From Gemmatimonadaceae bacterium (GTDB taxonomy: Bacteria; Gemmatimonadota; Gemmatimonadetes; Gemmatimonadales; Gemmatimonadaceae): a stretch of DNA of 64,000 nucleotides. The notes under the pieces were generated by a model. It made no database searches, was not told where the DNA came from, and saw nothing but the letters and a program-made list of their open reading frames with translations. Location of the stretch: the NCBI GenBank assembly GCA_014377535.1, contig JACMPK010000024.1:3942-67941 (forward strand). Direction: 5' to 3'. Below are positions 2,693 to 58,593 of this stretch, piece by piece (the first letter of the stretch is position 1; every line of letters begins with the position of its first letter). The position numbers were made by a program, and so were the translations under genes.

Positions 2693-2704
2693 CGGCCACC
2701 GTCG

Positions 2705-5640: not shown

Positions 5641-5742
5641 GCAGATACGGCTCAGGCGGAACGTTCCGCGAGGAGCGTCGTCTCATATGTGATCAAGCGC
5701 ACCGGCCGTCAGATCATTCGCTGACCTGCCGATGCTCTTGGT

Positions 5743-7338: not shown

Positions 7339-7393
7339 CCGCTCTGCAGCGTCGGCCGAACCAGACGCACGCCAGACCAAATCGTACATCGTG

Positions 7394-7428
7394 CTGCCGC
7401 CACTGTTTTGGGCGGCAGTGTCGTTTTC
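7394..7428 (+). terminator. intrinsic terminator-like hairpin downstream of the hydrolase gene
   Basis: Stem CTGCCGCC (7394-7401) / GGCGGCAG (7411-7418), followed by TGTCGTTTTC. Confidence 0.55.
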
Positions 7429-7468
7429 AGGCCACGCGACTTGCGCGCGTCCCTGGACGCGTAGATTA

Positions 7469-8394: not shown

Positions 8395-8399
8395 TCGCC

Positions 8400-35829: not shown

Positions 35830-36028
35830 ACTCCGCTCACACGGAGCCGCGGAGGCACGGAGGGCTCGCGCGCGTCGCGACGCCTTGCGTCTCGACGCAG
35901 ACGAAAAAAGCTGTCGGAACTGCGTTCGTGTACACGCAGCTCCTACAGCTTTTTCTGCCTCCAGCAGTCTTTCAGGACTGACGCGACACCCGTATCTCCG
36001 TGCCTCCGCGGCTCCGTGTGAGCGGAGT
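35830..36028. repeat. CGGAG-octamer palindromic element, copy A (MITE/REP-like, 199 bp)
   Basis: Perfect 33-bp terminal inverted repeats: ACTCCGCTCACACGGAGCCGCGGAGGCACGGAG (35830-35862) and its exact reverse complement (35996-36028). Internal hairpin AAAAAAGCTGT...ACAGCTTTTT. Confidence 0.85.
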
Positions 36029-36081
36029 TCAGCCGCGGAGTTCTTGAACGTCGAAGTGCGCGATGGTTCGAAGACGCCGGG

Positions 36082-36498
36082 CTATGCGCAGTACTGGTCA
36101 AACGCACCCACGAGGTCGTGCGAAATCTCGTCTGCGGTGCGGCCTTCGATCTGGTGACGCTCCAGCATGAACACCACCTTGCCGTCCTTCATCAGCGCGA
36201 TGCTCGGGCTGCTCGGGCGGTACCCCGTCATGTAGCTGCGGGCGGCCTGCGTCGGCTCGGGGTCCTGACCGGCGAAGACCGTCACACTCTTGTCGGGCGT
36301 GGCCGTGTGAGCCAGCGCCGTCTTGATCGCGGGGCGCGCGTTCCGGGCTGCGCAGCCGCACATGCTGTTGACCACTACCAGCGTCGTACCGTCGGCACTT
36401 TTCAGCGCCTGATCGACATCGGCCGCGCTCTTCAATTCCTGCACACCGAGATCGGTCAGCTCGGCGCGCATCGGGGCAATGAAACGTTCGTCGTACAT
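36082..36498 (-). CDS. bacilliredoxin (BrxA/BrxB, DUF1094 family)
   Basis: Aligns along its whole length with B. subtilis YphP/YqiW: TTLVVVNSMCGCAA (CGC active site), TVFAGQD, PSSPSIAL. Confidence 0.9.
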   Translation of the reverse strand: MYDERFIAPMRAELTDLGVQELKSAADVDQALKSADGTTLVVVNSMCGCAARNARPAIKTALAHTATPDKSVTVFAGQDPEPTQAARSYMTGYRPSSPSIALMKDGKVVFMLERHQIEGRTADEISHDLVGAFDQYCA

Positions 36499-36538
36499 GG
36501 GTCCAGCTCCTGCCAGAAAGTGAATGAGCAGCGACAGA

Positions 36539-36934
36539 CTAGAACAGGATGTCGTCGGCTACGTTCGTGTCGCGAACCAGCGCCAGGATGGCGGCTTGCG
36601 GCACCACCAAATATCGCTCGTTCTCGAAAGTGATTTCCACACTCGCCTTGCGGAAGAACAGCGCATAATCGCCCTTCCGTGCCTGCATCGGGACATGTCG
36701 CGCACCGCCTGGTCCCGGCTGCGCGTTCTTCCACGGCTCGTCGCTGTCCTGCGACGCCAGGTCCGGCATCGGCAGGCCGGGACCCGTCGCGACGATGCGA
36801 CCGCCCTGCACCGCCTGATTGTCCACGGCAGTCGGCGGCAGGTACAGGCCCACCGACGAACGCTCCTCTCCCTCCTGAATGGAAACGAGCACCCGGTCGC
36901 CGACGACGATGAGTTCCTTGTTCTTCTTCCGCAT
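36539..36934 (-). CDS. GroES (Cpn10)-family protein with an internal insertion
   Basis: GDRVLV...SSVGLYLP...QGGRIVATGPG...KGDYALF...YLVVPQAAILALV follows the GroES pattern, with about 25 extra residues after GPG. Confidence 0.65.
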   Translation of the reverse strand: MRKKNKELIVVGDRVLVSIQEGEERSSVGLYLPPTAVDNQAVQGGRIVATGPGLPMPDLASQDSDEPWKNAQPGPGGARHVPMQARKGDYALFFRKASVEITFENERYLVVPQAAILALVRDTNVADDILF

Positions 36935-37012
36935 GACGATCCCGATCAAACCCGGTCGTCAGGAAGTCCGACGACCACTGCCCCAAAGTTACACCGCCAC
37001 CGCTGGGCTGGC

Positions 37013-38446
37013 TCAGCGATTGCCGGCTGCACCGGCGGCTGTCGACCGCTTCACGAGGTGAAACCGCGTCTGCCGCTGATACCCCCAGCGCACCACGCCG
37101 GCCCCATCGAGAATCACATCCTCTTCCTGTCCCACGCGCACCATCTGGTTGCCCCACTCCGGCACCTTCGAGGCCGACTGCAGCTCGATGGAGAACCAGG
37201 TGCCGGGCTGCATCACATGGTCGCCGCGACCCGGCACGCCATCCTGATAGTCCCACAACCCGATCAGCGGGCCGGCGCCATGCCCATGCATCCCGATCGG
37301 ATGCGAGTAGATGGTGCCCACGATGCTGTCGCGCGTCATCCGCTGCCGCGATGACTGCAGCACCTCGTTGCCGCTGCGGCCCGCCTTGATCTCAGAGAAC
37401 ACGATGTCCTGCAGGCGATTCGTGGTTGTCAGCGCGGCGCGCAGGCCGACCGGCACCTCGGTCTCGCCGTCCTTCAGCACGTAGCCCATGTGCTGCGTGT
37501 CGGTGTTCAGGCGCATCGCCGTGATCCCGAAGTCGCAATGCAGCACGTCGCCCTTCTGGATCACGGGGTCGTCGCCAAGCTGCTGATCGGTGGATCCGCG
37601 GCGCTGCACGTCGACCGACGGGTGGAACCAGGTCGTGAGCCCGTAATCCGCCATGCGCTGGCGCATCCACCAGACCACGTCGCTGGTGCGCGTGACACCG
37701 GGCGTGATGACGCGCCCCGAGAACGCCTCCTCGATGATGTCCCAGGTGAGGCGGTTCATTCGCGTGAACGTCGCCTCTTCCTCGGGCTGCCGGATCGCGA
37801 TCAGGTCGACGGCCAGGCGACCTGCAGTCACGATCTCCGGACGCCAGTCGCCAACCGGCTTCAACACCTCGCGCGACAGCATGCCCGTGTACTCACCAAG
37901 TGTCAGCCCATCAGCGAAGGCGAAGGTCGTGTCGATGTTCAGCGCGATGCGCTTCGGCTTGCGGTCCAGGATGACCTTCGTGAGCACGTCCCACTGCGCC
38001 GAGCCCCAGAGTTCGGCGGTCGTGCGGCCGGAGCTGACGTTGGTGGCGGCGATCTGCGAGCGCACCGCCGTGAAGACGCCTCCCTGCGACGTGCCGCCGA
38101 GTGCGAGTCGCTCGATGCCCTTGTCACCACCGAGATCGTGAAAGACGTAGATGGTGCGTCGGCGCGCATTGAGCGTGGTGGGCGATACGATCGACGAGAA
38201 CACCGGATCCTCGTTGTACTCGCGCATCGGCACGATCCACATGTCCACGCTGTCGCGTTTCATCAACGCGGGCAGCGTGCGTTCCATGCGCAGCGTGAGC
38301 CACTGCTGCTGTGCCGCGGCCCATTCTTTTTGCGTACCGAGGGGACGGCGCGCGTCGCTGTCGCGAAGATGCGGCCCGACCTGTGCGACGAGCGGCGTGG
38401 CCAGCAGGCTGGCCGCAAGCATGAGGCGATGTGCGGCGCGGCGCAT
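37013..38446 (-). CDS. M24 family metallopeptidase (Xaa-Pro aminopeptidase-like), secreted
   Basis: Signal peptide, then the pita-bread fold motif series (GDVLHCDFG, YSHPIGMHGHG, FSIEL). Confidence 0.82.
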   Translation of the reverse strand: MRRAAHRLMLAASLLATPLVAQVGPHLRDSDARRPLGTQKEWAAAQQQWLTLRMERTLPALMKRDSVDMWIVPMREYNEDPVFSSIVSPTTLNARRRTIYVFHDLGGDKGIERLALGGTSQGGVFTAVRSQIAATNVSSGRTTAELWGSAQWDVLTKVILDRKPKRIALNIDTTFAFADGLTLGEYTGMLSREVLKPVGDWRPEIVTAGRLAVDLIAIRQPEEEATFTRMNRLTWDIIEEAFSGRVITPGVTRTSDVVWWMRQRMADYGLTTWFHPSVDVQRRGSTDQQLGDDPVIQKGDVLHCDFGITAMRLNTDTQHMGYVLKDGETEVPVGLRAALTTTNRLQDIVFSEIKAGRSGNEVLQSSRQRMTRDSIVGTIYSHPIGMHGHGAGPLIGLWDYQDGVPGRGDHVMQPGTWFSIELQSASKVPEWGNQMVRVGQEEDVILDGAGVVRWGYQRQTRFHLVKRSTAAGAAGNR

Positions 38447-38518
38447 GGGAAAAGCTCCTGTGTCGAAAGACGTGAGTCGTGTACGGTCCGTTCTGCTGCT
38501 GGTCGTGCGGCTGACGTC

Positions 38519-39049
38519 CTACCGATCGTCCTTCTTATCGTCCTTCGGATCGTCGATCACGGTGTCGCCGGCAGCCCTGACGGAACGACGGATGCCCTGC
38601 ACCACGATCGCGAGGATGCCGGCATAAATGGTCAGTGCCACGACGTGCCAGCTGACCACCTTCGCGGCGATGCTGCCAAGATCACTCCAGGTGGCCAGCG
38701 TGCTGCCGTACGGCTCGCGCGCCAAGGAGATCAGCAGCGCCGACATCGAGACTTCGGTCAGACATTCGACCAGCGCGAATACAGGCACCCGCCAGAGCCA
38801 GCGCTTGAGCGGAAAGTTGCCCAGGTGAAGCGTCGCCATACCGAAGAACACCAGCACGCCAAGCGCGATGACCGAGCCGAAAAAGAGCGGCGAGTCAGTC
38901 GGGCCCGTGCCCAGGAAAAGCGCACGACAGAGTCGCCACGCGACGCCTGTGAGCATTGCCATCGCGACGAGCGACCGGCTGAACTTGCGCACAGCACTCG
39001 CCTCGTAGGCGTCCCAGACTCCGGTGGCCGGAGGCGCGAAGCGGACCAT
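38519..39049 (-). CDS. hypothetical membrane protein
   Basis: 176-aa ORF with 4-5 hydrophobic segments and an acidic/basic tail (DDPKDDKKDDR). Confidence 0.5.
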   Translation of the reverse strand: MVRFAPPATGVWDAYEASAVRKFSRSLVAMAMLTGVAWRLCRALFLGTGPTDSPLFFGSVIALGVLVFFGMATLHLGNFPLKRWLWRVPVFALVECLTEVSMSALLISLAREPYGSTLATWSDLGSIAAKVVSWHVVALTIYAGILAIVVQGIRRSVRAAGDTVIDDPKDDKKDDR

Positions 39050-39195
39050 GCGCGCAAGTTGACGACCGAGCGCGTCAGACGGAAGGCGATGCGCAATATG
39101 ACGGCACAGGCAGGGGGGTGTTTTCTGCTGCCTGGGCCGAGGTTCACCACGTCAATTGTGGCACCGGCGCGGCGAGAAACGTGCGATGCGATGCC

Positions 39196-40236
39196 CTACG
39201 GCGCGAGCCGCTCGGCGATGAAGCGCAGGCTCTCCGGCAGGTGCGCGCGCCAGTAGACCCAGTCATGCCGGCCGCTCCACTCGGCGTACGTCAGCGGCAC
39301 ATGCAAAGCCTGCATGTTCTCGCGGAACGAGCGGCTCATGGGCAGCAGCTGATCTTCCGTTCCGACGTCCACGAACAGCGAAGGCAGCGGATCGCCGCGC
39401 CGGAGCAACTGCTGCACCAGGTGTGTGGGGTCGCGCGCGATCCACGACACGGAATCGGCGCCGAATGCGGGCTCCATTCTCGTCCAGCGTGCGCCTGAGG
39501 CGGTGCGCAGCTCGTCGCGCGTGCGTGCATCGCGCATCGTCACCCTGCCGGTCGTCGGCACCGTGCTGCTGTCGGTCATGAGTGCCGGTCGCAACACGCC
39601 GCTGTGACTCGCCGCGACGGAGAATGTCAGCGGATTGCGCGCAGCGATGCTGATCGCGCCATAGCCGCCCATGCTCAGCCCCGCGATGGCGCGCGACTCG
39701 CGACGCGGCAGTGTGCGAAATGCCGCGTCGGTGAACGCCAGCACGTCATGCACCACATAGTCGTCGTACTTGGGCCAGGGCACGCAGTAGGTGTCGGCAT
39801 TCTCCTGGCGTGGCGTGCGACGGCATGCCGCCACGTCGTTCAAGGCATGCCATGTGGTCCACCACCCGTCGTCGCCATCGGGCATCACCACGATCATCTC
39901 GCGCATGCCCGCCGTCACGAGCGAGTCCATCATGTGGGCCAGCGCTCCCTGTGCCGTCCAGTCGGTCTCGCTGCCCCAGCTCCCGTGCAGGTACACCGCC
40001 ACCGGATAGCGACGCGTTGCCGCAGTGCTCGCGTCGTACGACGGCGGCAGGTACACAACCATCGTCTTCGTGATGCCGAGTGCCTGCGACCAGAATCGCA
40101 CCGGCTCGACACGACCCGTGCGCACTGCCGACATGACCTGGGCCTGCACGCTGGCCGTACAGGTCGCAACCGCCAGCATCAGGCATGCGAGGTGGCGCAT
40201 CATGATCGAGAGTGGTGACAGGGTGCTGTGCTGCAC
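39196..40236 (-). CDS. esterase family alpha/beta hydrolase (PF00756-like 'putative esterase')
   Basis: Signal peptide, YLHG.., the nucleophile elbow GLSMGGYGA, and a C-terminal HDW motif. Confidence 0.78.
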   Translation of the reverse strand: MQHSTLSPLSIMMRHLACLMLAVATCTASVQAQVMSAVRTGRVEPVRFWSQALGITKTMVVYLPPSYDASTAATRRYPVAVYLHGSWGSETDWTAQGALAHMMDSLVTAGMREMIVVMPDGDDGWWTTWHALNDVAACRRTPRQENADTYCVPWPKYDDYVVHDVLAFTDAAFRTLPRRESRAIAGLSMGGYGAISIAARNPLTFSVAASHSGVLRPALMTDSSTVPTTGRVTMRDARTRDELRTASGARWTRMEPAFGADSVSWIARDPTHLVQQLLRRGDPLPSLFVDVGTEDQLLPMSRSFRENMQALHVPLTYAEWSGRHDWVYWRAHLPESLRFIAERLAP

Positions 40237-40239
40237 GAC

Positions 40240-41508
40240 TCAGTGCGTGGTCGCATCGCGCTTCAGCCAGACGTAAAGCGGCGTGCCGGCGACGATTGCC
40301 AGAAAGCCCCACATCGCCGACTGCGGCCCGACGCCGTACATCGTCCAGAGCACGAACACGAAGCCGATGGTCGCCTCGACCGTCACGCGCGTCGCACTTT
40401 CCGTAGTGTATCGCTCGGGAAAACGACGCACGAGCAGCAGCTCGGCCGCGCAGGTGTACAGGTGCGGCAGCAGCGTGGTCAGGATCGCGAGTAGCGCCAC
40501 GAAGCTGAAGACGCCGAGCAGCGACTGCGAGAAGTAGAGCAGCAGCAGCGCACTGGGGATCAGCGTGCCGACGATCATCGCAACGTGTGGAGTAACGAAG
40601 CGTGGATGCAGGCGACCGAGCGGCGGAAAGAACAATCCGTCCTGCGCCGCGGTTACGGGAATGCGTCCCGCCATCAGCACCCATCCATTGAGCGTGGCGA
40701 GGTTGGAGCCCAGTGCGACGATGCCGATCGCCATGGCAGCCCACGGTCCGACCGCGCGCGCCATCGCCAAAGCGATCGGGCGAGGACTCTCAGCCAGTTC
40801 ACCCGTCGGTACGGTGCCGACCACCATCAGCGCCGTCAGCAGGAACACCGCCGTCGCGATCCAATAGCCAAGCATCGTGCCGCGTCCGAGGGTCTCCGCC
40901 GAGCCGCGCACCTCGTCCGCGGGCACGGTTGCCGATTCGACGCCCGAAAACGCCCACACCACCAGCGCGCATGCCGGCGCCAGCGCGCCCCAGCCCTGCG
41001 GTGCGAACGGCGTCAGGTTCGCGATGCGGATTTGCGGCAACGCGATTAGTGCGCCGATGACGAGCGGCACCACGGTGAGGAACATCAACGCCACCTGCAG
41101 CCGTGATCCGTGCTGCACGCCGATGGTGTTCAGCGCGCAGAATCCCCACAGCAGCAGCTGCGCCAGCATGAACTGCTGCATCGGTGACTCGCGGAACGAC
41201 TCGCTGAATCCCGTCGCGTAGCCGATCACTGCGGTCACGATCGCCGCGTTGCCGATGGTGGCGCTGAGCCAGTAACTCCACACCGTCTGGAATCCGGCGA
41301 AGTCGCCGAACGCCTCACGCACATACACGTACGGGCCACCGGTCCTGGGCCAGCGTGTCCCGAGTCGCGAGTAGGTGCGCGCAATGAAGAAGTAGCCGAC
41401 GGCGGTGATTGCCCATGCGGCCAGTGCGAGCGGTCCTGCCGCCTTCGCCATCGTGGCCGGCAACGTCCAGATCGACGTGCCGACCATGTTCCCCACCGCC
41501 AGCGCCAC
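40240..41508 (-). CDS. APC family amino acid permease
   Basis: 12-TM ORF with an AVGNMVGTSIW TM1 motif. The annotated GTG start probably truncates TM1 (see findings). Confidence 0.85.
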   Translation of the reverse strand: MALAVGNMVGTSIWTLPATMAKAAGPLALAAWAITAVGYFFIARTYSRLGTRWPRTGGPYVYVREAFGDFAGFQTVWSYWLSATIGNAAIVTAVIGYATGFSESFRESPMQQFMLAQLLLWGFCALNTIGVQHGSRLQVALMFLTVVPLVIGALIALPQIRIANLTPFAPQGWGALAPACALVVWAFSGVESATVPADEVRGSAETLGRGTMLGYWIATAVFLLTALMVVGTVPTGELAESPRPIALAMARAVGPWAAMAIGIVALGSNLATLNGWVLMAGRIPVTAAQDGLFFPPLGRLHPRFVTPHVAMIVGTLIPSALLLLYFSQSLLGVFSFVALLAILTTLLPHLYTCAAELLLVRRFPERYTTESATRVTVEATIGFVFVLWTMYGVGPQSAMWGFLAIVAGTPLYVWLKRDATTH

Positions 41509-41552
41509 GACGCCGAGCAGCGTCAGGCGGCGAATGGGCGCGATGCGTTCCG

Positions 41553-42419
41553 TCAGCGGAACACGTGTCCGATGCGCGACCAGCGGATATCGGTGATGAA
41601 TGGCAGCGCGCGATCGGAATCGGCGGCATTGTAGCTGTAGTACACGAAGATGGGGCGACCGCGCAGGTTGCCGCGCGGCACGATACCCCAGTACCGGCTG
41701 TCCTTCGACTCGTAGCGATTGTCGCCGAGCATGAAGAGGTGACCGGCGGGGATCACGAGCGGGCCCCAGTTGTCGTGCGTCGGAACGGCAGGCGGCTCAC
41801 CGAATCGTGAGCCTTTCACTTCGACACGATGCTGCCACTCGAAGAGCGGGTGCGGTTCGTCGGCGCCGAGCTTGCTCGTGCTTTCGTCGGCGCGCTGCGG
41901 AAACGGCGTGCCGTTCACGTGCACCACGCCGTCGCGCATGAAAATCGTGTCACCAGGCGTGCCCCAGAGCCGCTTCACCAGCGTGGGCTGCGGATCGTTG
42001 CCGACCTGCGCCTCATCCGCCTGGTACGGCGACTTGAAGACGACGATGTCCTTGCGCACAGGCTCGGCGTAGCCGGGCAGCGTGAGGTCGGTGAACGGAA
42101 TGTTGGGGCCGTACACCAGGTTGTTCACGAACAACCAGTCACCGACCATCATCTCCGGCTCCATGCTGGGCGACGGGATGCGGTAAGCCTGGAAGAAGAA
42201 GATCCTGATGACGAAGAAGATGAGGATCGGAACGATCCAGCCCTTCAACCCTTCGGTGACCGACGACTTGGCAGCGCTGGTGCCGCGCGCAGCAGCGACG
42301 ACCTTCGATGGCGGGGCGGAACTGGAGTTCTGGTCGGCAGCCACGGGATTTCGATGCAGCGGTAACGGGCGTGAACGGCGGGATGAAACACAATCGAGGG
42401 CCTGCCCCCAGGAGGACAT
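41553..42419 (-). CDS. lepB: signal peptidase I
   Basis: IPSPSMEP (catalytic Ser), VVFKSP, GDNRYESKDSRYWG (box E). Start set at ATG 42419 because TTG 42440 lies inside the upstream terminator. Confidence 0.9.
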   Translation of the reverse strand: MSSWGQALDCVSSRRSRPLPLHRNPVAADQNSSSAPPSKVVAAARGTSAAKSSVTEGLKGWIVPILIFFVIRIFFFQAYRIPSPSMEPEMMVGDWLFVNNLVYGPNIPFTDLTLPGYAEPVRKDIVVFKSPYQADEAQVGNDPQPTLVKRLWGTPGDTIFMRDGVVHVNGTPFPQRADESTSKLGADEPHPLFEWQHRVEVKGSRFGEPPAVPTHDNWGPLVIPAGHLFMLGDNRYESKDSRYWGIVPRGNLRGRPIFVYYSYNAADSDRALPFITDIRWSRIGHVFR

Positions 42420-42437
42420 GCCCTCGATCCGGTCCAG

Positions 42438-42463
42438 CAAAAGATAACCCGCCAGCTGGCGGG
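42438..42463 (-). terminator. intrinsic terminator after the SWIB gene
   Basis: Palindrome CCCGCCAG/CTGGCGGG (42448-42463), followed on the minus strand by TTATCTTTTG. Confidence 0.55.
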
Positions 42464-42472
42464 TGATTCGAT

Positions 42473-42823
42473 TCAGCTCAGGTGCTTCGACACGAGAGCC
42501 GTCATTTCAAACATGGTCACGCTCGACTTGCCGCCAAACACGGCCTTGAGCATGGCATCGGCCACGATGGTCCGCTTGTCCGTGGGCTTCTGCAGGTTGT
42601 TCTTCTTGATGTAGTCCCAGATGTCCTTGGTGACTTCGGTGCGCGGACGCGGGTTCGGGCCAATGACGGCAGCCAGTTCCGGGCTGATGGTCATTGACTT
42701 GTTGAACGCCGTGGCGCTCTTCTTTGCGGCCGGCGCCTTGGCGGCAGCCGTCTTCGCAGGTGCCTTGGCAGCGGCCTTCGTGGCCGGCGCCTTCGTTGCG
42801 GCAGCCTTCTTCGCAGGGGGCAT
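42473..42823 (-). CDS. SWIB/MDM2 domain protein with histone-H1-like Ala/Lys/Pro N-terminal tail
   Basis: MPPAKKAAATKAPATKAAAKAPAKTAAAKAPAAKK, followed by the SWIB core (ISPELAAVIG...RTEVTKDIWDYIKKNNLQ...). Confidence 0.85.
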   Translation of the reverse strand: MPPAKKAAATKAPATKAAAKAPAKTAAAKAPAAKKSATAFNKSMTISPELAAVIGPNPRPRTEVTKDIWDYIKKNNLQKPTDKRTIVADAMLKAVFGGKSSVTMFEMTALVSKHLS

Positions 42824-43003
42824 CGCAGATCCTCGGGACTGAGGGAGGGGCGAGCGACGCTCGCCGATGACGTGGAGCGAGACTCGCGCGCTCATCGTGG
42901 CAGACGACGGCGACTGCCGAACGAAATGACCATGACGGGCGGGAAGGTACACACTGGCTACCCGGGCGCAACAGCAGGTGCACCCACTCGTGCCGCAGGA
43001 GCG

Positions 43004-43900: not shown

Positions 43901-43942
43901 GGGTGTGCGTGTCGAAGGGTCAACGTGCGCGGCAGCATGCAC

Positions 43943-44794: not shown

Positions 44795-44894
44795 GCGGCC
44801 AATCTACGCGATCTCCGCCACTGCACCGCGCTAGCTTTGCCGAACCGGCCGGGCATGCGCCGCGTGGCCAACTGCCAACTCCACTCCGCACATC

Positions 44895-47509: not shown

Positions 47510-47540
47510 TTCTGGTTCCCTGCTTGCAGCAGACCGCAAA

Positions 47541-47725
47541 CTCTGCTCGCACGGAGCCGCAGATGCACGGAGACGTGCAACAGCGTTCTTGGGATGCACG
47601 GTACGAACGCTGCACTGCAGACCGCGCGCCGCTCTCGTATGTGCTGCGCACAACGCCGAACGCGCATCGCAGTTTGCGAGGCCTTTCCAGCTGAGCGTCT
47701 CCGCTGACTCCGTGCAATCAGAGTC
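47541..47725. repeat. CGGAG-octamer palindromic element, copy B (185 bp, diverged)
   Basis: Left arm ACTCTGCTCGCACGGAGCCGCAGATGCACGGAGACG. The reverse complement of the right arm is ACTCTGATTGCACGGAGTCAGCGGAGACG. It lies between convergent genes. Confidence 0.75.
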
Positions 47726-47755
47726 GACGATGCGAACGCGCACTGGGGCCGTTCG

Positions 47756-48637
47756 TCAGCCGCGCAGGTTGCGCAGATATCGTTCGGGATCTGCCAGAAA
47801 ATCGCGTGTCAGGCGCACATGTTCCGTCTGATCCCATGCGACCTCGGTGATCGGCGTCTCGTCGAACGAATGGATCCTCGCACCCGGAAAGGCGAGCAGC
47901 AGTGGTGAGTGGGTCGCGATGATGAACTGCGCGCCCTCGGCCACGAGGTCGAACATCATGGCCAGCAGCGCGAGCTGCCGTTGGGGCGAGAGCGCGGCCT
48001 CGGGCTCGTCCATCAGGTACAGCCCGCGCGGTACGAGTCGCTGCTGAAAAAAGTTCAGAAACGCCTCGCCGTGCGACCGCGCATCAGGATCGGCACCATA
48101 GCGATTCTCCATATCCTGCAGGCTGGCGCGCACCGGTCCCATGGCGAGCGCCTTTGCATGCGCCGAGCGGTCCGCATACTCTTCCTCCATGCGCGCCAGT
48201 GTCTCCACGAACTCCGCACGCTCGCGCTTGAGCAGATTCTGGAATCCGAAAAAGTCCTCGGCGCGCAGGAAGAATCCGCGGTTGCTGCGCGAACGCCAGC
48301 TGAGCGTGAGCGCACGCGAGAGCTTGAGCTGCTCAGTTAGCGTCGGATCGTCCTGCGCACGACCGGCCGCACCAGCCGACGGCAGTGACGCTGCGATCGC
48401 GATCGCCTCCAGCAGCGTGGACTTGCCCGAGCCGTTCTCGCCCACGAAACAACACACCGGCGCATCGAGGTCGAGCGTACCGAGTGCCGCGATCGTGGGC
48501 ACGGTAAACGGAAACTGCGCGCGCGTCCTCGACCAGTCCGGGTGCGTATGCGTCACGCTGCGCAGCTGCGGTGCGCCGTCGTGCGACACATCGGTCATCG
48601 GTGTTGCGGTCGTGCGCCGTCTCGGTGCGCGCGTCAT
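47756..48637 (-). CDS. AAA/ABC-like ATPase (SMC/RecF-type P-loop, AAA_15/21-like)
   Basis: Walker A GENGSGKST, Walker B/D-loop LYLMDEPEAALSP, H-loop ATHSP. Start uncertain (ATG 48637 or 48598); the longer ORF runs into repeat copy C. Confidence 0.78.
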   Translation of the reverse strand: MTRAPRRRTTATPMTDVSHDGAPQLRSVTHTHPDWSRTRAQFPFTVPTIAALGTLDLDAPVCCFVGENGSGKSTLLEAIAIAASLPSAGAAGRAQDDPTLTEQLKLSRALTLSWRSRSNRGFFLRAEDFFGFQNLLKRERAEFVETLARMEEEYADRSAHAKALAMGPVRASLQDMENRYGADPDARSHGEAFLNFFQQRLVPRGLYLMDEPEAALSPQRQLALLAMMFDLVAEGAQFIIATHSPLLLAFPGARIHSFDETPITEVAWDQTEHVRLTRDFLADPERYLRNLRG

Positions 48638-48699
48638 GTCAGGCGCGGCCGTCAGCAGTGCGCATGGCTCCAGGCTGTGTGCGTGGCTCGCAGATCGTC

Positions 48700-48855
48700 G
48701 ACTCCGCTCACACGGAGACTCGGAGCCGCGGAGGAACAGCATCGGCTGCTGGTGTGACGCCGTTCAAAAGAAATCTGTTGATGAACAACTCGCGCGAACG
48801 GAGGATTGCATGGTCGCACAATCCTCCGCGGCACCGCGGCTCCGTGTGAGCGGAA
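48700..48855. repeat. CGGAG-octamer palindromic element, copy C (156 bp)
   Basis: Left arm ACTCCGCTCACACGGAGACTCGGAGCCGCGGAGG. The reverse complement of the right arm is ATTCCGCTCACACGGAGCCGCGGTGCCGCGGAGG. Inner hairpin GGAGGATTG...CAATCCTCC. Confidence 0.8.
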
Positions 48856-48913
48856 TTGAAAGATCGTACTCTGCGCACGCACCCTCCGAGCCGCACGCTG
48901 TACCGGCACCGAC

Positions 48914-51553: not shown

Positions 51554-51721
51554 GGGTGCCTGGTGGTGAACTGGGCGTCGACAGCCTGTACGACAGCGTA
51601 CGCGTACAGGTTCCAGCCGGCCATGTCGGGTAAACAGGCAGTTGCGTGCAGTGCCGCCAACGCAGCGCCGATACTGGCAAGCGAGCGCGATGTTCTGCGC
51701 AGCCCCCAAGCCCACCGCAGT

Positions 51722-52687
51722 ATGCATGAGCCATCACTTCCCGGTGCGGATCGCCGTTCCGCAAACGATCCATCGGGCCTCGAGCGTCGGTTGACGTCCA
51801 TCCTGCAATCATCGCCGGCACCCACTGTCTGCGTGGCTCGAAGCCGCGACGAGGGCGGCGACCTGATGGTCGCCGGCGCGTCGCTGCTGGAGCATGTGCG
51901 CTTCCGCGTTGCCGCGCTGCAGCGATCCGGCATGCGGCGCGACGACATCCTGGCCAGCGATGCCGTCGGCATCGGGCGCGTGGTCGATGCGCTGGCCACC
52001 GTGATGGGCGGTTTCGTGTACTGGCCCTACAGCGACCATCGTCGTATTTCCGAGGGGCCGCTGGTCACGGACTCCGGTGCGCCGCTGGTCTGGCGTCCGA
52101 ATCCGCTGGTCGGCGTGAACCTCGCGCCTGGCATGCCGCACGAGCCGCCAGCCGCGCTGCCCATGCGACTCTCGGTACGGTTGCTCAACGCGATGGCGAA
52201 TGCGGGGCCGCAGGTCCGCGCACTGGCCGACGCGCGCGCCGATGCTCCGCCGTTCGCGATCAATTCGCAAACCATCGGCCGACTGGGCGCCACGTTGCGC
52301 CGCCGCCTTGGCATCAAGCGCCAGAGTCTGCGGTTCTGCGCCGCACCGGCCGAGTCGGCGGCCGGCATTCTGCTCGATATCCTGCCTGCGATCGCCGCGC
52401 GTCAGGTGATGGTGGTGCCGAACGAGCCCGATCCGTCGTCCACGACCATCGTGCGTGCCATCGGCCGCTACCATCCCGACTCGATGACACTGACGCTCGC
52501 GCAGGCCACTGCACTGGTGGACACACCGGCCGACGAGCACACCATGACGGCGATGCGACAGTTGCACCTGCTGATCGCTGACACCTGCCCCGTTCCACTG
52601 CCGCTGCGCGAGCGGCTCACCACGATGGTCGGACGGCTGGACATTGCGTACATCCTGGCCGAGTCGGGTGACGCGTACCTGCTCTGA
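51722..52687 (+). CDS. hypothetical protein, weak resemblance to the N-terminal domain of ANL (adenylate-forming) enzymes
   Basis: Only the 3' third of the 791-aa ORF looks coding. It is divergent from the Omp85 gene. The resemblance is a spacing pattern only (see findings). Confidence 0.45.
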   Translation: MHEPSLPGADRRSANDPSGLERRLTSILQSSPAPTVCVARSRDEGGDLMVAGASLLEHVRFRVAALQRSGMRRDDILASDAVGIGRVVDALATVMGGFVYWPYSDHRRISEGPLVTDSGAPLVWRPNPLVGVNLAPGMPHEPPAALPMRLSVRLLNAMANAGPQVRALADARADAPPFAINSQTIGRLGATLRRRLGIKRQSLRFCAAPAESAAGILLDILPAIAARQVMVVPNEPDPSSTTIVRAIGRYHPDSMTLTLAQATALVDTPADEHTMTAMRQLHLLIADTCPVPLPLRERLTTMVGRLDIAYILAESGDAYLL

Positions 52688-52723
52688 CATGCCGGGCGCG
52701 TGGGACGCGACAGAAGGAACGCA

Positions 52724-52768
52724 CGACAAAATCGAACGGCGCGGCGCTGACGATCTCGCCGCACCGTT
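52724..52768 (-). terminator. intrinsic terminator after the TonB-dependent receptor gene
   Basis: 13-bp stem GAACGGCGCGGCG / CGCCGCACCGTTC with one mismatch, followed on the minus strand by GATTTTGTCG. Confidence 0.5.
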
Positions 52769-52789
52769 CCCGCATCGCTGCCTGTAACG

Positions 52790-55087
52790 TCAGAACTCCC
52801 AGTTGATCCCGATGCTTGGCAGCAGCCCGATGCTCTCGTTGGGCACCGGCGCCCGGCGCCGCGCATCCCACGCGATCTGCGAGACGTTCTTTCGCGCGGT
52901 CGCGTTCTGCACGTCGATGTACGTCACCAGCTGCGACCGGCGGAATACGAAGCGACGGTCGATTCGCAGGTCGAGCGCGAAGAACGGCGGCAGGCGCTCG
53001 CCATCGTTGTAGCGGGTGAAGTCACGCTGCCCGGTTTCTAGGAACGGTGTCGTCGGAAGCCCCGCCGCCGCTCTCACGCGACCGCTGAACTCCCAGCGCG
53101 CATTCGGTCGCCAGCCAAGCAGGCCGTTGAAGACCATGGGTGAATCGAACGAACCGATGGAGGTGCTGCCATCGAGTCCCCGGAACCGCGTGCGATTGTA
53201 GCTGGCGCTGATCAATCCGTAGACAGGCACGTCGCTGAGCCGCTTCTGCAGCAGCACCTCGGCCCCACGCACCGACCCGGTACCCTGTGCGACCAGCGGC
53301 TCCAGTCCGTACGGAATGTCGTTCGTCACATCGTCGAAACCGCTTGGCTGCAATACGGCACGGCGGCGAAATGCGCGTGCCGGATAGTCCGAGTATCGCT
53401 TGCCGTATGTCTCGACCTGCAGCTTCAGGTCGGGACGGAGCAACCGCTGCCAGCCCGCCACCACCTGGTCGGCGCGCAACGGCTGCAGCGTCTGCCGGTT
53501 CTCCGGGTCACCAACCAGCCAGATCGGCTGCGGCGCTTGATAGTATTGGCCGCCGGCGAGTGTGAACGTGTTCACGTCATCCACGCTCCAGGCCAGTGCA
53601 CCACGCGGCGCGATGCGAATTTCGTTGCGCAGGAACTGGTACCAATCTCCGCGCACACCGAGTGTGAGGCGCAGGCGATCCGTGAGCTGCACGCTGCTCT
53701 GCACGTATCCCGCCTGACGGAACGCCGTGAACGACGTGTCCACGCGCAATGATCGCGGCACGCCATTCTGATCCACACGCAACGCCCCGGGCAGCGTGAT
53801 GTCGTAGTCCAGCGCGCCGGCGTACTTCGCCACCAGGCCAGCGGAGAGCTCTGTGCGTGCGGAGAGCTGCAGCGTGAGGTCGGTGCGCAACGACGTCTCT
53901 CCCTCGGTGGACTGCGCGCCGAAGACCTGCTGTGGCGGGTTGGACGAGTCGCGCTGCGCGGCGTCGAAACGGCTCCACGTGCGACCGAGTGTCGTGGTCA
54001 GCACGCCGTTGTGCAGCAGCCGCTTCCAGGTCGCGCCGGCGATGTACTGGTCCTGCGATGACCCAAGTACGCTGGAGTTTTCGAAGCGGTCATCAGCGTC
54101 GTTGTTCTTGAACGTGATCCGGTCGCGCGCACCGACGAAGAGGAACGACAGCTCGTCACGCGCGCTGGGCCGCTGCACGGCCTTCAGCGTCACATCCGTG
54201 TACGCCGGAATGAACGGGAAGCCGACCGCGTTGAACACGAAGTCCAGGTAGCTGCGACGCGCGCTCACCAGCAGCGAGCCATCGTTCGGCAGCGGGCCCT
54301 CGACGATTGCACCGAGTCCCGTGGCGGAGAGGTTCAGCGTCGTCGCGCGCCTCGCGCGATTTCCTTCGCGCAGCGAGATCGTCGTCACGCTGGACGTGCG
54401 GTCGCCATAGCGAACGCCGAAGCCGCCGGCGCTCAGCGCGGCGTCCTTCACGAACTCGATGGGGATCAGTGACACCGGACCGCCGGTGGAGCCCTGCGTG
54501 CCGAAGTGATTCAGGTTCGGCACCTCGATGTTGTCCACTACGAAAAGATTCTCGAATGGCGCACCGCCACGCACCACGAGGTCGTTGCGGCCGGCGGTGG
54601 TCACGCCGACGCCCGGCAGCACGCTCACAGCGCGAATCACATCTTCCTGCACGCCCGGCGTCCGTCGGATCTCCTCGGCGGTGAACCGTTGCGTGCTGAC
54701 CGGCGATTCGCGCGTCGGCTCGAAATAGCTGGGCGCGACATCCACCGTTGCCAGCTGCACCACGCGCGGCTGCAGCTCGATGACCACCGTGGTCGGCTTG
54801 CCGACGCTCACCACGACATCGCTGCGCACGATCGGCGCAAAGCCGATGGCGCGCACCTCGAGCCGCACCACCCCGACCGGCACCCGCAGCGTGAAGCGAC
54901 CATCCGCGCCGGTGACCGCGGCAATGTCGGTGCCGCCAACGCGGATCGACGCGCCTTCGATGGGCTGCTGCGTGGGACCCGATCGCACGCGCCCGTCGAT
55001 CAGGCCCGTGCGTGTCGTCTCCTGCGCCTGCGCCACGGGCGCGCCCGCGAGCAGCGCGACGAGCATCAGGTATGCGCGTTGGCTCAT
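52790..55087 (-). CDS. TonB-dependent receptor with N-terminal carboxypeptidase-regulatory-like domain
   Basis: Signal peptide, a CarboxypepD_reg-like segment (GRVRS...PIEGASIRV...TGADGRFTL), a plug domain, and a 22-strand-type barrel ending INWEF. Confidence 0.88.
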   Translation of the reverse strand: MSQRAYLMLVALLAGAPVAQAQETTRTGLIDGRVRSGPTQQPIEGASIRVGGTDIAAVTGADGRFTLRVPVGVVRLEVRAIGFAPIVRSDVVVSVGKPTTVVIELQPRVVQLATVDVAPSYFEPTRESPVSTQRFTAEEIRRTPGVQEDVIRAVSVLPGVGVTTAGRNDLVVRGGAPFENLFVVDNIEVPNLNHFGTQGSTGGPVSLIPIEFVKDAALSAGGFGVRYGDRTSSVTTISLREGNRARRATTLNLSATGLGAIVEGPLPNDGSLLVSARRSYLDFVFNAVGFPFIPAYTDVTLKAVQRPSARDELSFLFVGARDRITFKNNDADDRFENSSVLGSSQDQYIAGATWKRLLHNGVLTTTLGRTWSRFDAAQRDSSNPPQQVFGAQSTEGETSLRTDLTLQLSARTELSAGLVAKYAGALDYDITLPGALRVDQNGVPRSLRVDTSFTAFRQAGYVQSSVQLTDRLRLTLGVRGDWYQFLRNEIRIAPRGALAWSVDDVNTFTLAGGQYYQAPQPIWLVGDPENRQTLQPLRADQVVAGWQRLLRPDLKLQVETYGKRYSDYPARAFRRRAVLQPSGFDDVTNDIPYGLEPLVAQGTGSVRGAEVLLQKRLSDVPVYGLISASYNRTRFRGLDGSTSIGSFDSPMVFNGLLGWRPNARWEFSGRVRAAAGLPTTPFLETGQRDFTRYNDGERLPPFFALDLRIDRRFVFRRSQLVTYIDVQNATARKNVSQIAWDARRRAPVPNESIGLLPSIGINWEF

Positions 55088-55170
55088 GGAACGTAGAACG
55101 ATGTGCATGGCAGGCAGGCAGCAAGGACCCATGGATGAGCAGTCACGAGTTCGACGCGCGATTTAGGCTG

Positions 55171-55222
55171 CAACGCAAAGGAGCCCGGCACCGCAGCCGT
55201 GAAGGCGCAGGTGCCGGGCTCC
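55171..55222 (-). terminator. terminator-like hairpin after rpmG
   Basis: 12-bp stem GGAGCCCGGCAC / GTGCCGGGCTCC, followed on the minus strand by TTTGCGTTG. Confidence 0.45.
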
Positions 55223-55244
55223 GCGCGTAGCGCGGCACCGTGAC

Positions 55245-55406
55245 TTACTTGGTTTCCTTGAACAGCACGTGCTTCTTGACGACGGGATCGTACTTCTTCA
55301 TCTCGATCCGCTCAGGATGCAGACGTGCATTCTTGGTCTTGTGATACGTGTACGGTGATTCCGTGCTGCGCAACTTGATGTTGATGCGCTTGCCCTTAGC
55401 GGCCAT
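55245..55406 (-). CDS. rpmG: 50S ribosomal protein L33
   Basis: [61 protein letters not shown] lies 5 nt upstream. Confidence 0.9.
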
Positions 55407-55555
55407 GATGCTCCTCGCGGGGTACTGGTTCCTGTAGCCTCCAAACGTATAACGGCCCAGTTCGGGATGCGAGGGGTGACTCCGAGCAAATTCGCGATCG
55501 TCTTCCAACCGAACGGCCCTCCGCGCCGGCGTCGAGGGCTGCTACACTGCGCTGC

Positions 55556-57034
55556 ATGACTGCCCCGACTGCAAATCCGCTCACCGCACCCGTGCCCGCC
55601 TCCGGTGACTTCGACGCCGCCGTGCTCGAAGCCGGCGTCGACCGAATCTTGACGCTCTTCCAGAGGCTGCATGACGCAGGCGCGTTGCCGCCGGTACTGA
55701 GCCAGGTCACGCCTGGCACGATTGCGGACCAGCTCCCCGCGCTCCCTCCACGCGTCGCCGAGCCGATCGAGACGATCCTTGGCGACGTGGAGCGGATCAT
55801 CGTGCCTGGCATCACGCACTGGCATCACCCGTCGTTCTTCGCCTATTTCGCAAACTCGTCCAGTGTGCCATCACTGCTGGGCGAATTCTTGACTTCGGGG
55901 CTGAACGCCAACGCGATGCTGTGGGTCACCAGTCCCGCCGCGACCGAGCTGGAAGAGCGCGTGCTGCAGTGGCTCTGGACCGCGATGGGGCTGCCCGACG
56001 CAACGTCATGGTTCGGCATGATCACCGACACGGCATCCATGTCCACGTTGCTCGCGATCGCGGCGGCCCGTGAGGCCGCGGGCTACGACGTGCGCCGAAA
56101 GGGTCTGGCCGGCCGTGTGGACGTGCCGGTGCTCCGTGTGTACTGCAGCGAGCAAACGCACTCGTCCATCGACAAGGCATGCATCACGCTGGGCATCGGC
56201 AGCGACAACGTGGTGAAGATTCCGGTGGACGATGCATTCCGCATGCGTGTGGACGCGCTGGAGGCGGCGATGACCGCCGATCGCGCGGCAGGCATGCGTC
56301 CGTTGGCCGTGGTGGCGACGATCGGCACGACCAGCACGACCAGCGTGGACCCGGTGCCGGCGATCGCGGACCTGTGCGCGCGCGAGCAGGTCTGGCTGCA
56401 TGTCGACGCCGCTTACGCGGGCGTGATGGGCATCGCACCGGAGTTTCGCTGGGCCCTGGCTGGCGTGGATCGCGCGGACAGCATGGTCACCAATCCGCAC
56501 AAATGGCTGTTCACCACCATGGATTGCAGCGCGTTCTGGACACGGCATCAGGACGTGTTGCGGAGCGCGTTCTCGCTGGTCGCCGAGTATCTCGTGACGG
56601 CGCGCGATCAGCAGGTGGTGAACTACATGGACTACGGCGTGCAGCTGGGACGTCGCTTCCGTGCGCTCAAGCTGTGGATGGTGATGCGCGCCTTCGGCAC
56701 CGATGGACTTGCGTCACGGCTGCGCGATCATTGCGCGATGGCGCGCGAGTTCGCCGCGTGGGTGGATGCCGATCCGGCATGGACGCTGAGTGCGCCGGTG
56801 CCGTTCTCGCTGGTCTGCTTCCGTCATGCCCCCGAAGGCATGAGCGACGCCGATGCAGACGCGATGAACGCGCGCATCCTGGCTGACGTGAACGCGGCAG
56901 GGCGCGTGTTCCTGTCGCACACGCGGCTGCATGGTCGTCACGTGCTTCGGCTGGCGATCGGCAACATCCTGACGGCGCGCGAACATGTCGCGCTGGCGTG
57001 GTCGGAGCTGCAGCGGGCGGCGCGGGCATCATAG
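55556..57034 (+). CDS. pyridoxal-dependent aromatic-L-amino-acid decarboxylase (group II)
   Basis: HWHHPSFFAYF, TSPAATELE, and NPHKWL (PLP-lysine region). Confidence 0.9.
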   Translation: MTAPTANPLTAPVPASGDFDAAVLEAGVDRILTLFQRLHDAGALPPVLSQVTPGTIADQLPALPPRVAEPIETILGDVERIIVPGITHWHHPSFFAYFANSSSVPSLLGEFLTSGLNANAMLWVTSPAATELEERVLQWLWTAMGLPDATSWFGMITDTASMSTLLAIAAAREAAGYDVRRKGLAGRVDVPVLRVYCSEQTHSSIDKACITLGIGSDNVVKIPVDDAFRMRVDALEAAMTADRAAGMRPLAVVATIGTTSTTSVDPVPAIADLCAREQVWLHVDAAYAGVMGIAPEFRWALAGVDRADSMVTNPHKWLFTTMDCSAFWTRHQDVLRSAFSLVAEYLVTARDQQVVNYMDYGVQLGRRFRALKLWMVMRAFGTDGLASRLRDHCAMAREFAAWVDADPAWTLSAPVPFSLVCFRHAPEGMSDADADAMNARILADVNAAGRVFLSHTRLHGRHVLRLAIGNILTAREHVALAWSELQRAARAS

Positions 57035-57036
57035 CC

Positions 57037-57400
57037 TGCAACTGCAGCTGTAACGTCGCCAGCAACGGCAACGGCAACGGTAACGTCAACAGCAACTCCT
57101 CTCACACGGAGTCGCGGATCCACGGAGAACGGCAACAACAAAGGCAACGGCAACTCTTTTCACGCAGAGACAACGGGGCAGCAGAGAGAGCTGAGAAGAA
57201 GCTGTGGGAACTGCGCTCGCGAAACGTCGTTTCCCGGTCAGTGCAGTTTCTCTGCGCCTTCGTTGCCTCTGCGTGAAAAGAGTTGTTGTTGCAGTAACAG
57301 TTGCAGTAGCAGGTGCCGTTCTCCGAGTCTCCGAGGCTCCGCGTGAGAGGAGTTGTAGTTGCCGTTGTAGTGGCCGTTGTCGTGACCGTTATCGGTATCG
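57037..57400. repeat. CGGAG-octamer palindromic element, copy D (expanded ~364-bp nested palindrome with NNCAAC hexamer-repeat arms)
   Basis: Outer hexamer tracts at 57061-57096 and 57355-57400. Octamer TIRs at 57094-57127 and 57321-57354. A perfect 16-bp inner IR CTCTTTTCACGCAGAG (57154-57169) / CTCTGCGTGAAAAGAG (57267-57282). Central GGGAACTGCG motif. Confidence 0.85.
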
Positions 57401-57478
57401 CTCGAGCAGACTTCGGCGTACTAGTTGCCGAGCAGCGAACCGATGGTGCTGGGCGCACCGCCGCCGGTGCGACGCAAA

Positions 57479-58216
57479 TCAGGCCCAGTATTGCCACTTG
57501 CCCGCATAGACGACATACGCGGAAAGACAGCCGTTGGTGACGGCATGTGTCCAGATGAGGTCGGCGATGGATGCGGTCTTCGCCATCCACGCATTGTAGA
57601 TCACACCACACAGCAGGCCCACTTCCCAATACGACCCATGTTCGCTGGCGAACAACAGCGCAGTTGCGACGAACGACAACGTCGTGAAACTCCCGAGCTT
57701 GCGAAGCCTGAAGTCATCGAACGAATCCACTGCACGCGGCAGCCACCCACGCCAGAACAGCTCCTCGAGAATCGGCACCAGCAGCACCGCGCGTGCAGCC
57801 CGCAGCCAGAGCGTCAGCATGTCGCCACGCTCCGCGATGGCCAGTCCAGCAGTGGGATGTCCGACCACCGAATTGTCGAACAGCCAATGCGTACGCCACC
57901 CGGGAAACAGCTCCTCAGGGGCGATCCAGAGCAGGAACACGCCGATACCGATCACGGTCGACATGACGAAGTGCTTTGGCACCAGCTGGATCACGTCACG
58001 ACTGAGCACCAGCAGCGCCGCGACCAGCAGCACGATCCAGAGCGCCGCGTTCCACGGCTGCGGAATACCAAGCGGCTTGATGACGGCCAGCAGCACCATG
58101 AACAACGCAAACGGTGCGACCCACGGAACGGCGGCGCGAACAGGCATGGCGTGCGGGCACGGGATATTTGACCAGCTTCGACGCGAGAATCTACGACGCG
58201 TCATGCGCTGCGGCAC
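57479..58216 (-). CDS. CPBP family intramembrane glutamic endopeptidase (CAAX protease-like)
   Basis: EELFWRGW (motif 1), FASEHG (motif 2), THAVTN (motif 3). Confidence 0.85.
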   Translation of the reverse strand: MPQRMTRRRFSRRSWSNIPCPHAMPVRAAVPWVAPFALFMVLLAVIKPLGIPQPWNAALWIVLLVAALLVLSRDVIQLVPKHFVMSTVIGIGVFLLWIAPEELFPGWRTHWLFDNSVVGHPTAGLAIAERGDMLTLWLRAARAVLLVPILEELFWRGWLPRAVDSFDDFRLRKLGSFTTLSFVATALLFASEHGSYWEVGLLCGVIYNAWMAKTASIADLIWTHAVTNGCLSAYVVYAGKWQYWA

Positions 58217-58257
58217 AGTGCCCGTTGCGGCGCGCTGTCAATGCACTGCGAACCGAC

Positions 58258-58593
58258 AACCCCTCACACGGAGACGCGGAGCCGCGGAGTCGATCGCGGC
58301 GGCAGTCACTGGCAACGGGCAGCGGCAACCCTGACGGCGCCGTCGGTGTGATGCGAACGGAAAACCCCTCACACGGAGCCGCGGAGCCGCGGAGTCGATC
58401 GCGGTGGCAGCGGCTGACGACCGGTGGCGGCACTCTCGACTGCTTGTGGAACTGCTGCTCGCGCGCGCAGTTCCAGAATCCGATGGAAGCCTCGTGCAAC
58501 ACAAAGCATGACGACGGCTACGCCCCACCGCGAGCGGAGCACATCACACGCACGGCACCCCTCCGTGCCTCGGTAGCTCCGTGTGAGTGGAGT
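58258..58593. repeat. CGGAG-octamer palindromic element, copy E (336 bp, left arm tandemly duplicated with a 105-bp period)
   Basis: AACCCCTCACACGGAG(A/C)CGCGGAGCCGCGGAGTCGATCGCGG occurs at 58258-58299 and again at 58363-58404. Right arm CTCCGTGCCTCGGTAGCTCCGTGTGAGTGGAGT at 58561-58593. Central 9-bp stem TGGAACTGC/GCAGTTCCA. Confidence 0.85.

Follow-up and report, generated by a model that had tools for sequence, protein, structure and literature searches.

How do five copies of one nested palindrome come to lie between the genes of a 23-kb segment without interrupting any of them, and with no transposase in sight? The question is raised by a 64,000-nucleotide stretch of DNA (hereafter the window) from a Gemmatimonadaceae metagenome-assembled genome (MAG; contig JACMPK010000024.1, positions 3,942 to 67,941), whose repeated elements we name A to E in order of position. 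An earlier description made from the sequence alone, here called the original prediction, had likened them to known classes of non-autonomous repeats without recognizing a described family. We conclude that A to E are probably non-autonomous members, lacking an open reading frame (ORF), of a family of hairpin-bounded mini-cassettes whose complete form carries a single GxxExxY gene. This cassette family is very widespread and, apparently, so far undescribed. Two elements of this answer go beyond the original prediction, namely the existence of a gene-bearing GxxExxY partner with the same termini in related genomes and the presence of the arm core across phyla.

The five regions do possess the arm architecture that had been described for them. 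Their common arm form is ACTCCnC-TCACACGGAG-(nCnCGGAG)n, with the reverse complement 90-290 nt away and inner hairpins between; both sides of every copy show TCAC[AG]CGGAG together with two or three units. In the window, CTCACACGGAG (at most one mismatch) is present 10 times where 2.1 are expected, all ten matches falling within 35.8-58.6 kb, and CGGAGNNNCGGAG (at most one mismatch) is present 29 times where 10.9 are expected, its exact matches being confined to A-E. Neither count is reached by any of 100 dinucleotide shuffles, and the view that the likeness is more than a random resemblance of GC-rich sequence is thus upheld. Positions and Pfam assignments of the 10 ORFs adjoining the elements likewise bear out the picture of dense, intergenic, non-autonomous nested palindromes (156-331 bp each, five within 23 kb) that interrupt no gene. 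Along the contig the copies are clustered, with none in window positions 1-35000 and all five in the next 23 kb. The placement "always" after the 3' ends of genes holds insofar as the nearest stop codon is 6-142 nt from each of the five copies, but C and E are also located upstream of a gene start. As for the central motif attributed to A, D and E, GCTGTNGGAACTGCG, A and D hold exact copies of it, whereas E has in common with them just the GGAACTGC/GCAGTTCC stem. A comparison with Rfam, which had been proposed as a check, returned no family for the elements in gathering-threshold scans of the window and 18 related loci, in keeping with the earlier failure to recognize a described family. Elements A, C and D are strong palindromes forming long hairpins, and B and E are decayed copies (Table 1).

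The complete form of the element is seen in relatives of the window genome. At positions 811-1306 of locus L112, from a Gemmatimonadaceae MAG, exactly the window termini, AACTCCnCTCACACGGAG...CTCCGTGTGAGnGGAGTT, surround a GxxExxY ORF (TIGR04256, E 4.5e-38; PF13366, E 2.9e-37), and in L201 and L202, cassettes likewise from Gemmatimonadaceae, the same termini enclose a GxxExxY ORF. The lineage head AACTCCnC-TCACACGGAG is common to the window copies and to all three of these cassettes. When element C and a short element from L103 are aligned with three full cassettes (alignment A5), the likeness extends over some 42 nt at the left end and some 45 nt at the right end, and the cassette interior is missing from both short forms. 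A tblastn search of the window with a GxxExxY protein found no coding remnant at E<=10; hence, the window copies are ORF-less derivatives rather than full cassette members. No other coding remnant was found inside them. One or more full GxxExxY cassettes are nevertheless almost certainly present in the genome from which the window derives, since L201 comes from the same sequencing run and has a neighboring accession: two window proteins are identical to MBC7561526.1 and MBC7561509.1 (MAG Gemmatimonadaceae bacterium), the L201 protein P0007 is MBC7562447.1, about 900 accession numbers away, and SRA run SRR9661224, the source of L201, also yields a contig (L001) that is 99.8% identical to window 55144-57285.

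Comparable relationships are seen outside this family of bacteria. A gammaproteobacterial locus (L076) is a full cassette, and three repeats from Sedimenticola (L093, L058 and L109) align with this type of cassette as versions with differing internal deletions (alignment A3). In a Sedimenticola MAG the arms surround a short ORF, MNENEIRGIAVDCAVKMPMRLGPGLLEFY, whose sole, weak family match is to GxxExxY/PDDEXK_3, and in a further full version, from a planctomycete (L032), the GxxExxY gene is placed between two complete short hairpins. Across about 200 loci, the longest ORF between the arms is nearly always GxxExxY or its reverse strand. No other cargo emerged from these loci, the few other ORFs having looked spurious by inspection without a Pfam check, and the larger ORF of L099 has no Pfam match.

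The association also holds when approached from the side of the protein. A metagenome scan with an alignment of three GxxExxY proteins gave 80 loci, 71 of which had full flanks, and in 58 of these 71 the inverted repeat of the flanks scores higher than the 99th percentile of the shuffles. The flank score has a median of 41 for a cassette's own pair of flanks versus 18 for flanks drawn from different cassettes. The arm units come in several variants (CGCGGAG, CACGGAG, CGCAGAG, CGCGAAG, CACGAAG, CGCAAAG and CACAGAT) and are capped by YTCA ahead of the first unit (27 of 45 cassettes) and TGAN after the last (35 of 45). Between the end of the left arm and the ATG, the same 45 cassettes have a median of 14 nt, so that the final GGAG or GAAG has the spacing of a Shine-Dalgarno sequence. 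In 27 of them the ORF runs on through the right arm, and the C-terminal tail of the family consensus, ...PSASPRLRVN, is translated arm that is disordered in the AlphaFold model. A covariation test was carried out on a gap-free alignment of 34 arm pairs with 500 shuffles: 89.5% of arm cells are paired against 80.7% after shuffling, 121 cells are changed on both sides against 46.9 (neither observed value reached by any shuffle), and the covariation score is 0.350 against 0.188, with slid controls at 0.08-0.18. Moreover, twelve cassettes occupy one site, between the stop of a fabD-like gene and the start of fabG (MFDLTG...), where their unit types differ and their arms are 86-97% complementary. 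These are either ancient, vertically inherited residents or products of site-specific insertion. The covariation and the differing yet complementary arms of the fabD/fabG cassettes together indicate that the pairing of the arms has been maintained around intact genes. It is clearly maintained only there, and sequence does not separate the RNA from the DNA level in this respect.

The product of the cassette gene, about 125 aa long, has the PD-(D/E)XK nuclease fold and is a member of TIGR04256/PF13366 (PDDEXK_3). This is a very large family: at 50% identity it counts 17,027 representatives (E<=1e-3), and its clusters at 90% identity number at least 7,947 (E<=1e-10). Residues D72, E82 and K84, which constitute the canonical D...ExK, and the GxxExxY helix are invariant in 44 sequences. 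The AlphaFold model has a predicted local distance difference test score of 88 and a predicted template modeling score of 0.82, and the intact motif in this predicted fold suggests that the nuclease is likely to be active. Foldseek matches to the PDB are weak (E>=0.017) and include Cas4, lambda exonuclease, CinB, AdnAB and others, mostly nucleases of the PD-(D/E)XK fold; being weak, they point to no specific function. Neither the PADLOC nor the PHROGs library holds a meaningful GxxExxY family. GxxExxY has been listed as "unknown function, multiple transfers" (PMC3424549). The literature examined yielded no description of the arms, the cassette architecture or GxxExxY biology, and an earlier description elsewhere is possible. 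Three incidental points concern the family: residues 56-131 match the PDB structure 6xi1, named for a "flagellin hook IN motif family" (E=1.8e-4); proteins of about 275 aa with two tandem GxxExxY domains exist (P0121, P0123 and others); and the JGI label "iron complex transport system substrate-binding protein" on many GxxExxY proteins looks like an annotation error.

To establish how far the arms extend, we scanned one genome per species for the exact pattern CTCACACGGAGNNNCGGAGNNNCGGAG (21 specified bases), which gave at least 119 stretches. Among the matches listed are Kiritimatiellota, Acidobacteriota, Gemmatimonadota, Planctomycetota, Verrucomicrobiota, Bacteroidota, Chloroflexota, Myxococcota and Spirochaetota, as well as several orders of Gammaproteobacteria; a few assignments to gut Firmicutes or Bacteroidales bins look like mis-binned contigs. 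Almost all of the matches listed have the form CTCACACGGAG(nCACGGAG)n, many of them as plus/minus pairs spaced 35-450 nt apart. The arm core is thus not lineage-specific and is nearly unchanged in many phyla. On the other hand, the ACTCCnC head of the window is, among the matches listed, common only to Gemmatimonadaceae loci. An adapter or assembly artefact was considered and rejected, as the motif is present in a closed 5.8-Mb chromosome (L051) and in conserved gene contexts. Minimal versions with a single hairpin, with a left side of head plus three units and a right side of two or three, are found in Longimicrobium and Gemmatimonadales (L005, L024, L040, L051, L065 and L100). They sit 5-20 nt past stop codons, several being followed by a T-run, and in sequence they look like exapted intrinsic terminators. 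Arm motifs also occur near the starts of genes. In a Kiritimatiellota MAG (L008, 5241-5330 and approximately 6967-7060) two neighboring secreted glycosidase-like genes carry the motif in frame in their predicted N-terminal leader, MKNTKSQTSRNLTRRDGGTE..., where it precedes the hydrophobic core of the signal peptide, and in L108 two NPCBM-domain genes have it about 25 nt upstream of their start codons.

Several observations bear on the mobility and decay of the elements. The D-type composite, with an outer CACGGAG layer, an inner TTCACGCAGAG layer and a central GGAACTGC hairpin, recurs in L050, where the nested build of its inner element is reproduced at a non-orthologous locus, and the A-type composite recurs in L090. 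As there is no flanking similarity at L050 or L090, these composites were moved or transferred as units. A locus from a Gemmatimonadaceae MAG, L081, shows synteny with window 2568-9658 at 70-85% identity, and it has an element in an intergenic region whose syntenic counterpart in the window has none; the alignment of window 7080-7620 with L081 is too diverged to define exact ends. No target-site duplication is present in the flanks of A-E, L050, L060, L081, L112, L201 or L202, taking into account that their boundaries are not independently defined, and inverted symmetry goes on outward past the arms where a direct repeat would be expected. The statement that the window holds neither a target-site duplication nor a transposase stands, as does the one on RAYT-like genes, for which no aimed search was made. 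A further argument of the original prediction, that conserved nested stems imply a selected structure, is not borne out at the window loci, given that the stems of B and E have decayed and that the orthologous intergenic region of the related genome differs in content. This decay and the 71-75% complementarity of the D and E arms argue that most window copies are under no strong structure selection. Likewise, a small RNA with repeated GGA motifs or a sponge for CsrA was rejected, because the GGAG units are paired with the opposite arm in the palindromic copies.

We propose the following scenario for the family. A complete cassette is about 500 bp long and consists of a left arm, a leader of about 14 nt, one GxxExxY gene of about 125 codons and the reverse-complement arm, ending in TGA and the head. 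The left arm is built from a lineage-specific head (here AACTCCnC), TCA and two to five tandem 8-nt units of the form n-C[AG]C[AG][AG]A[GT]. Loss of the gene leaves arm-loop-arm palindromes like the window copies, which can then gain inner hairpins and more repeat layers. Copies would spread as selfish DNA, the likeliest agent being a GxxExxY nuclease acting in trans on the common termini. The route would be cut-and-repair or homing-like rather than DDE transposition, which is disfavored by the missing target-site duplication and the outward continuation of symmetry. Copies downstream of genes may persist since insertion is presumably tolerated there, and when transcribed they could form long stems able to shield 3' ends, to serve as RNase III substrates or to end transcription. 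Thereafter they would decay, as B and E have done.

Among known systems, the elements work most like MITEs (miniature inverted-repeat transposable elements), including the Correia/nemis elements of Neisseria, and the ORF-bearing intervening sequences (IVS) of 23S rRNA. Papers on IVS and on REP/MITE elements were the only comparators that the literature yielded. ORF-less IVS exist. Like the cassettes, the IVS of Coxiella burnetii and Leptospira are small selfish elements that hold one short ORF (S23p) of unknown role inside terminal inverted repeats of about 28 bp, form a long stem and lack a transposase; complementary ends that pair into a long stem and enclose a loop or an ORF are seen also in the folds of A, C and D and in the full cassettes. 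The IVS stem is cut by RNase III (PMC4990558), and in the cassettes, whose arms, unlike the IVS, are made of tandem 8-nt units, such cutting is putative. The two differ further in location and cargo. The window copies and cassettes occupy ordinary intergenic DNA rather than helices 9, 25 or 45 of 23S rRNA (Rfam finds no rRNA in the window) and so are not IVS in the strict sense, and the cassette ORF is GxxExxY (PF13366) as opposed to the four-helix-bundle S23p (PF05635). Nor are they integron attC cassettes: the arms described here flank the ORF in inverted rather than direct orientation, each copy stands alone at a scattered position, and there is no integrase among the ORFs adjoining the elements.

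The original prediction's comparison with MITE, REP and Correia elements is apt for the MITE- and Correia-like behavior, but the target-site duplication and transposase of a MITE and the features of REP are absent. Correia transcripts, according to De Gregorio et al., reportedly fold into hairpins that affect RNase III processing and mRNA stability. Were the elements classical MITEs, they would be deletion derivatives of an insertion sequence (IS) moved by a DDE transposase, and they do share with MITEs (reviewed in PMC10969869) a small size (below about 600 bp), terminal inverted repeats, multiple intergenic copies without a transposase ORF and derivation from a longer gene-bearing element. 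Yet no direct repeat lies beside any copy, the palindrome continues outward, and no parent IS with the same ends and a transposase is seen: the identifiable gene between such arms is each time GxxExxY, encoding a PD-(D/E)XK-fold protein. Furthermore, the arm core is present in many phyla rather than one genus, and a distant BLAST search with element A returned no plasmid record. The missing target duplication and the parent without a transposase indicate that these are not classical MITEs, an origin that we regard as improbable. Even less credible is that they are repetitive extragenic palindromic (REP) sequences, or their inverted doublets (REPINs), served by a REP-associated tyrosine transposase (RAYT) of the IS200/IS605-like type. 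The parallels are dense extragenic palindromes near gene ends, inverted doublets without target-site duplication and a one-gene partner inside the repeats. The two REP super-families are defined by a GTAG or CGTC tag at one end of units that are imperfect palindromes of 20-40 bp (PMC3733652), whereas the arms described here begin with ACTCCnCTCAC, bear no such tag and are not self-palindromic at that size. In addition, REP sequences are lineage-specific while the arm core spans phyla, and the partner is GxxExxY, not a Y1 transposase; none of the 10 element-adjoining ORFs is a Y1 transposase by Pfam, although no search aimed at RAYT was made.

A different kind of alternative is that the host, rather than the element, accounts for what is seen. 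The copies would then be host-selected intrinsic or bidirectional terminators, 3'-untranslated-region stabilizers or RNase III sites, and their likeness to cassette arms would be secondary. In favor of this are the closeness of all five copies to a stop codon, the core of A with its A-run, hairpin and T-run, the very stable folds of A, C and D, and the short Longimicrobium versions just past stop codons, some with T-runs. Yet B and E fold no better than shuffles, the D and E arms are only 71-75% complementary, the strict terminator scan does not call the central hairpins, the syntenic intergenic site in L081 differs in content, the same composite types occur at unrelated loci, and no copy accompanies the genes in the first 35 kb of the window. 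On balance, we consider this explanation unlikely, though more plausible than a MITE or REP origin. Chance likeness among GC-rich hairpins, for which the 65% G+C of the window might speak, is refuted by the shuffle counts and the recurrence of the 21-base pattern in other genomes, and its probability is negligible.

Several considerations weigh against our interpretation of A-E as derivatives of GxxExxY cassettes. Cutting or binding of the arms by the protein is putative. Arm sequences differ between cassettes whose proteins are still 45-60% identical, a divergence that selection for pairing explains no less well than recognition by the protein does. The window copies contain no GxxExxY remnant and are tied to the cassette by shared termini only; the assignment of L201 to the same MAG follows from accession proximity and a common run, not from one assembly. 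There is no filled/empty site pair of high identity from which to define insertion boundaries and mechanism. Finally, the placement of the copies and the T-runs of Longimicrobium and copy A are equally compatible with a host-selected terminator role.

Table 1. Positions, arms and surroundings of elements A-E and their internal features (window coordinates), and loci of the cassettes at the fabD/fabG site
Feature	Position	Arms or sequence	Inverted-arm length and complementarity; RNA fold z	State or content	Neighboring genes
Element A	35830..36028	35830-35862 and 35996-36028, 33/33 complementary	33 nt, 100%; z -13.2	Intact ORF-less copy	ABC-2 permease (stop 35486, +) / bacilliredoxin (stop 36082, -), convergent
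Central hairpin of A	35905..35954	AAAAAGCTGTCGGAACTGCGT...ACGCAGCTCCTACAGCTTTTT	21-nt arms, 90%	A-run on one side, T-run on the other	
Element B	47540..47724	Left arm ACTCTGCTCGCACGGAGCCGCAGATGCACGGAG; right end ...GACTCCGTGCAATCAGAGT	Degenerate, recognizable by motif only; z -1.3	Decayed copy	PhzF (stop 47509, +) / AAA ATPase (stop 47756, -), convergent
Element C	48701..48856	48701-48735 and 48822-48856	38 nt, 87%; z -7.4		Minus strand: Omp85-like gene stop (48914) / AAA-ATPase gene start
Element D, outer layer	57095..57353	57095-57127 and 57321-57353	91 nt, nested, 75%; z -13.2 (57040-57395)		AADC (stop 57034, +) / CPBP/Rce1-like (stop 57479, -), convergent
Outermost palindromic layer around D	57040..57395	Hexamers: left (CAACGG/CAACAG)n, right (CCGTTG/TGTAGT)n			
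Inner element nested in D	57153..57284	ACTCTTTTCACGCAGAG...CTCTGCGTGAAAAGAGT		Second head type; holds central GCTGTGGGAACTGCG hairpin 57201-57252	
Element E	58263..58593	Left arm twice, 58263-58289 and 58368-58394; right arm 58561-58593	42-49 nt, 71-73%; z -1.8	Decayed	Minus strand: RND pump gene stop (58735) / CPBP gene start (58216)
Central stem of E		TGGAACTGC 58447-58455 paired with GCAGTTCCA 58467-58475			
Cassettes at the fabD/fabG site				L132, L137, L141, L144, L147, L148, L154, L161, L166, L173, L176, L187	

Some details of individual copies merit mention. The central hairpin of A has the appearance of a bidirectional terminator, a reading of the sequence by eye, given that a strict terminator consensus scan called none of the central hairpins. 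Around D the palindrome goes on beyond the arms, one side consisting of tandem hexamers, (GCAACN)n, and the other of their complement (window 57040-57094 and 57354-57395), and a similar outward continuation is seen in L050 (6055-6070 and 6290-6320), L086 and L090. It looks as if the hairpin may extend outward through short tandem repeats. In E the left arm and about 20 nt of the interior are duplicated in tandem with a 105-bp period (window 58263-58394).

These elements also leave traces in sequence databases. They break short-read assemblies, as exemplified by the contig L001 (Logan, SRR9661224), which ends inside element D. Predicted ORFs are extended through the arms in many database entries, giving rise to the spurious N-terminus MLFLRGSESPCERS and to C-termini such as ...LRVSVPPCE or ...PSASPRLRVN. 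The ATPase ORF overlapping C (window 47756-48742, -) is a case in point, the overlap being an arm-encoded false N-terminus, MLFLRGSESPCERS....

For the biology of these genomes, the elements may be a source of terminators or RNase III sites where many genes end, and they connect the palindromic repeats of intergenic DNA with the ORF-bearing intervening sequences of rRNA, long unexplained. For GxxExxY/PDDEXK_3, a very large family without a known function, a testable role emerges, that of the gene carried by a selfish hairpin cassette, because the genes sit in covarying octamer stems and the cassettes shed gene-less palindromes across phyla. A broader proposal, which we put forward as no more than tentative, is that GxxExxY proteins are the mobility nucleases of phylum-spanning hairpin mini-elements, an intergenic counterpart of the rRNA IVS, with the octamer arms as their recognition or processing substrate and the ORF-less copies repeatedly exapted as terminators or 3'-end structures. 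If true, these mini-elements would constitute a kind of mobile DNA in prokaryotes that is separate from IS/MITE elements, REP-RAYT systems and group I and II introns.

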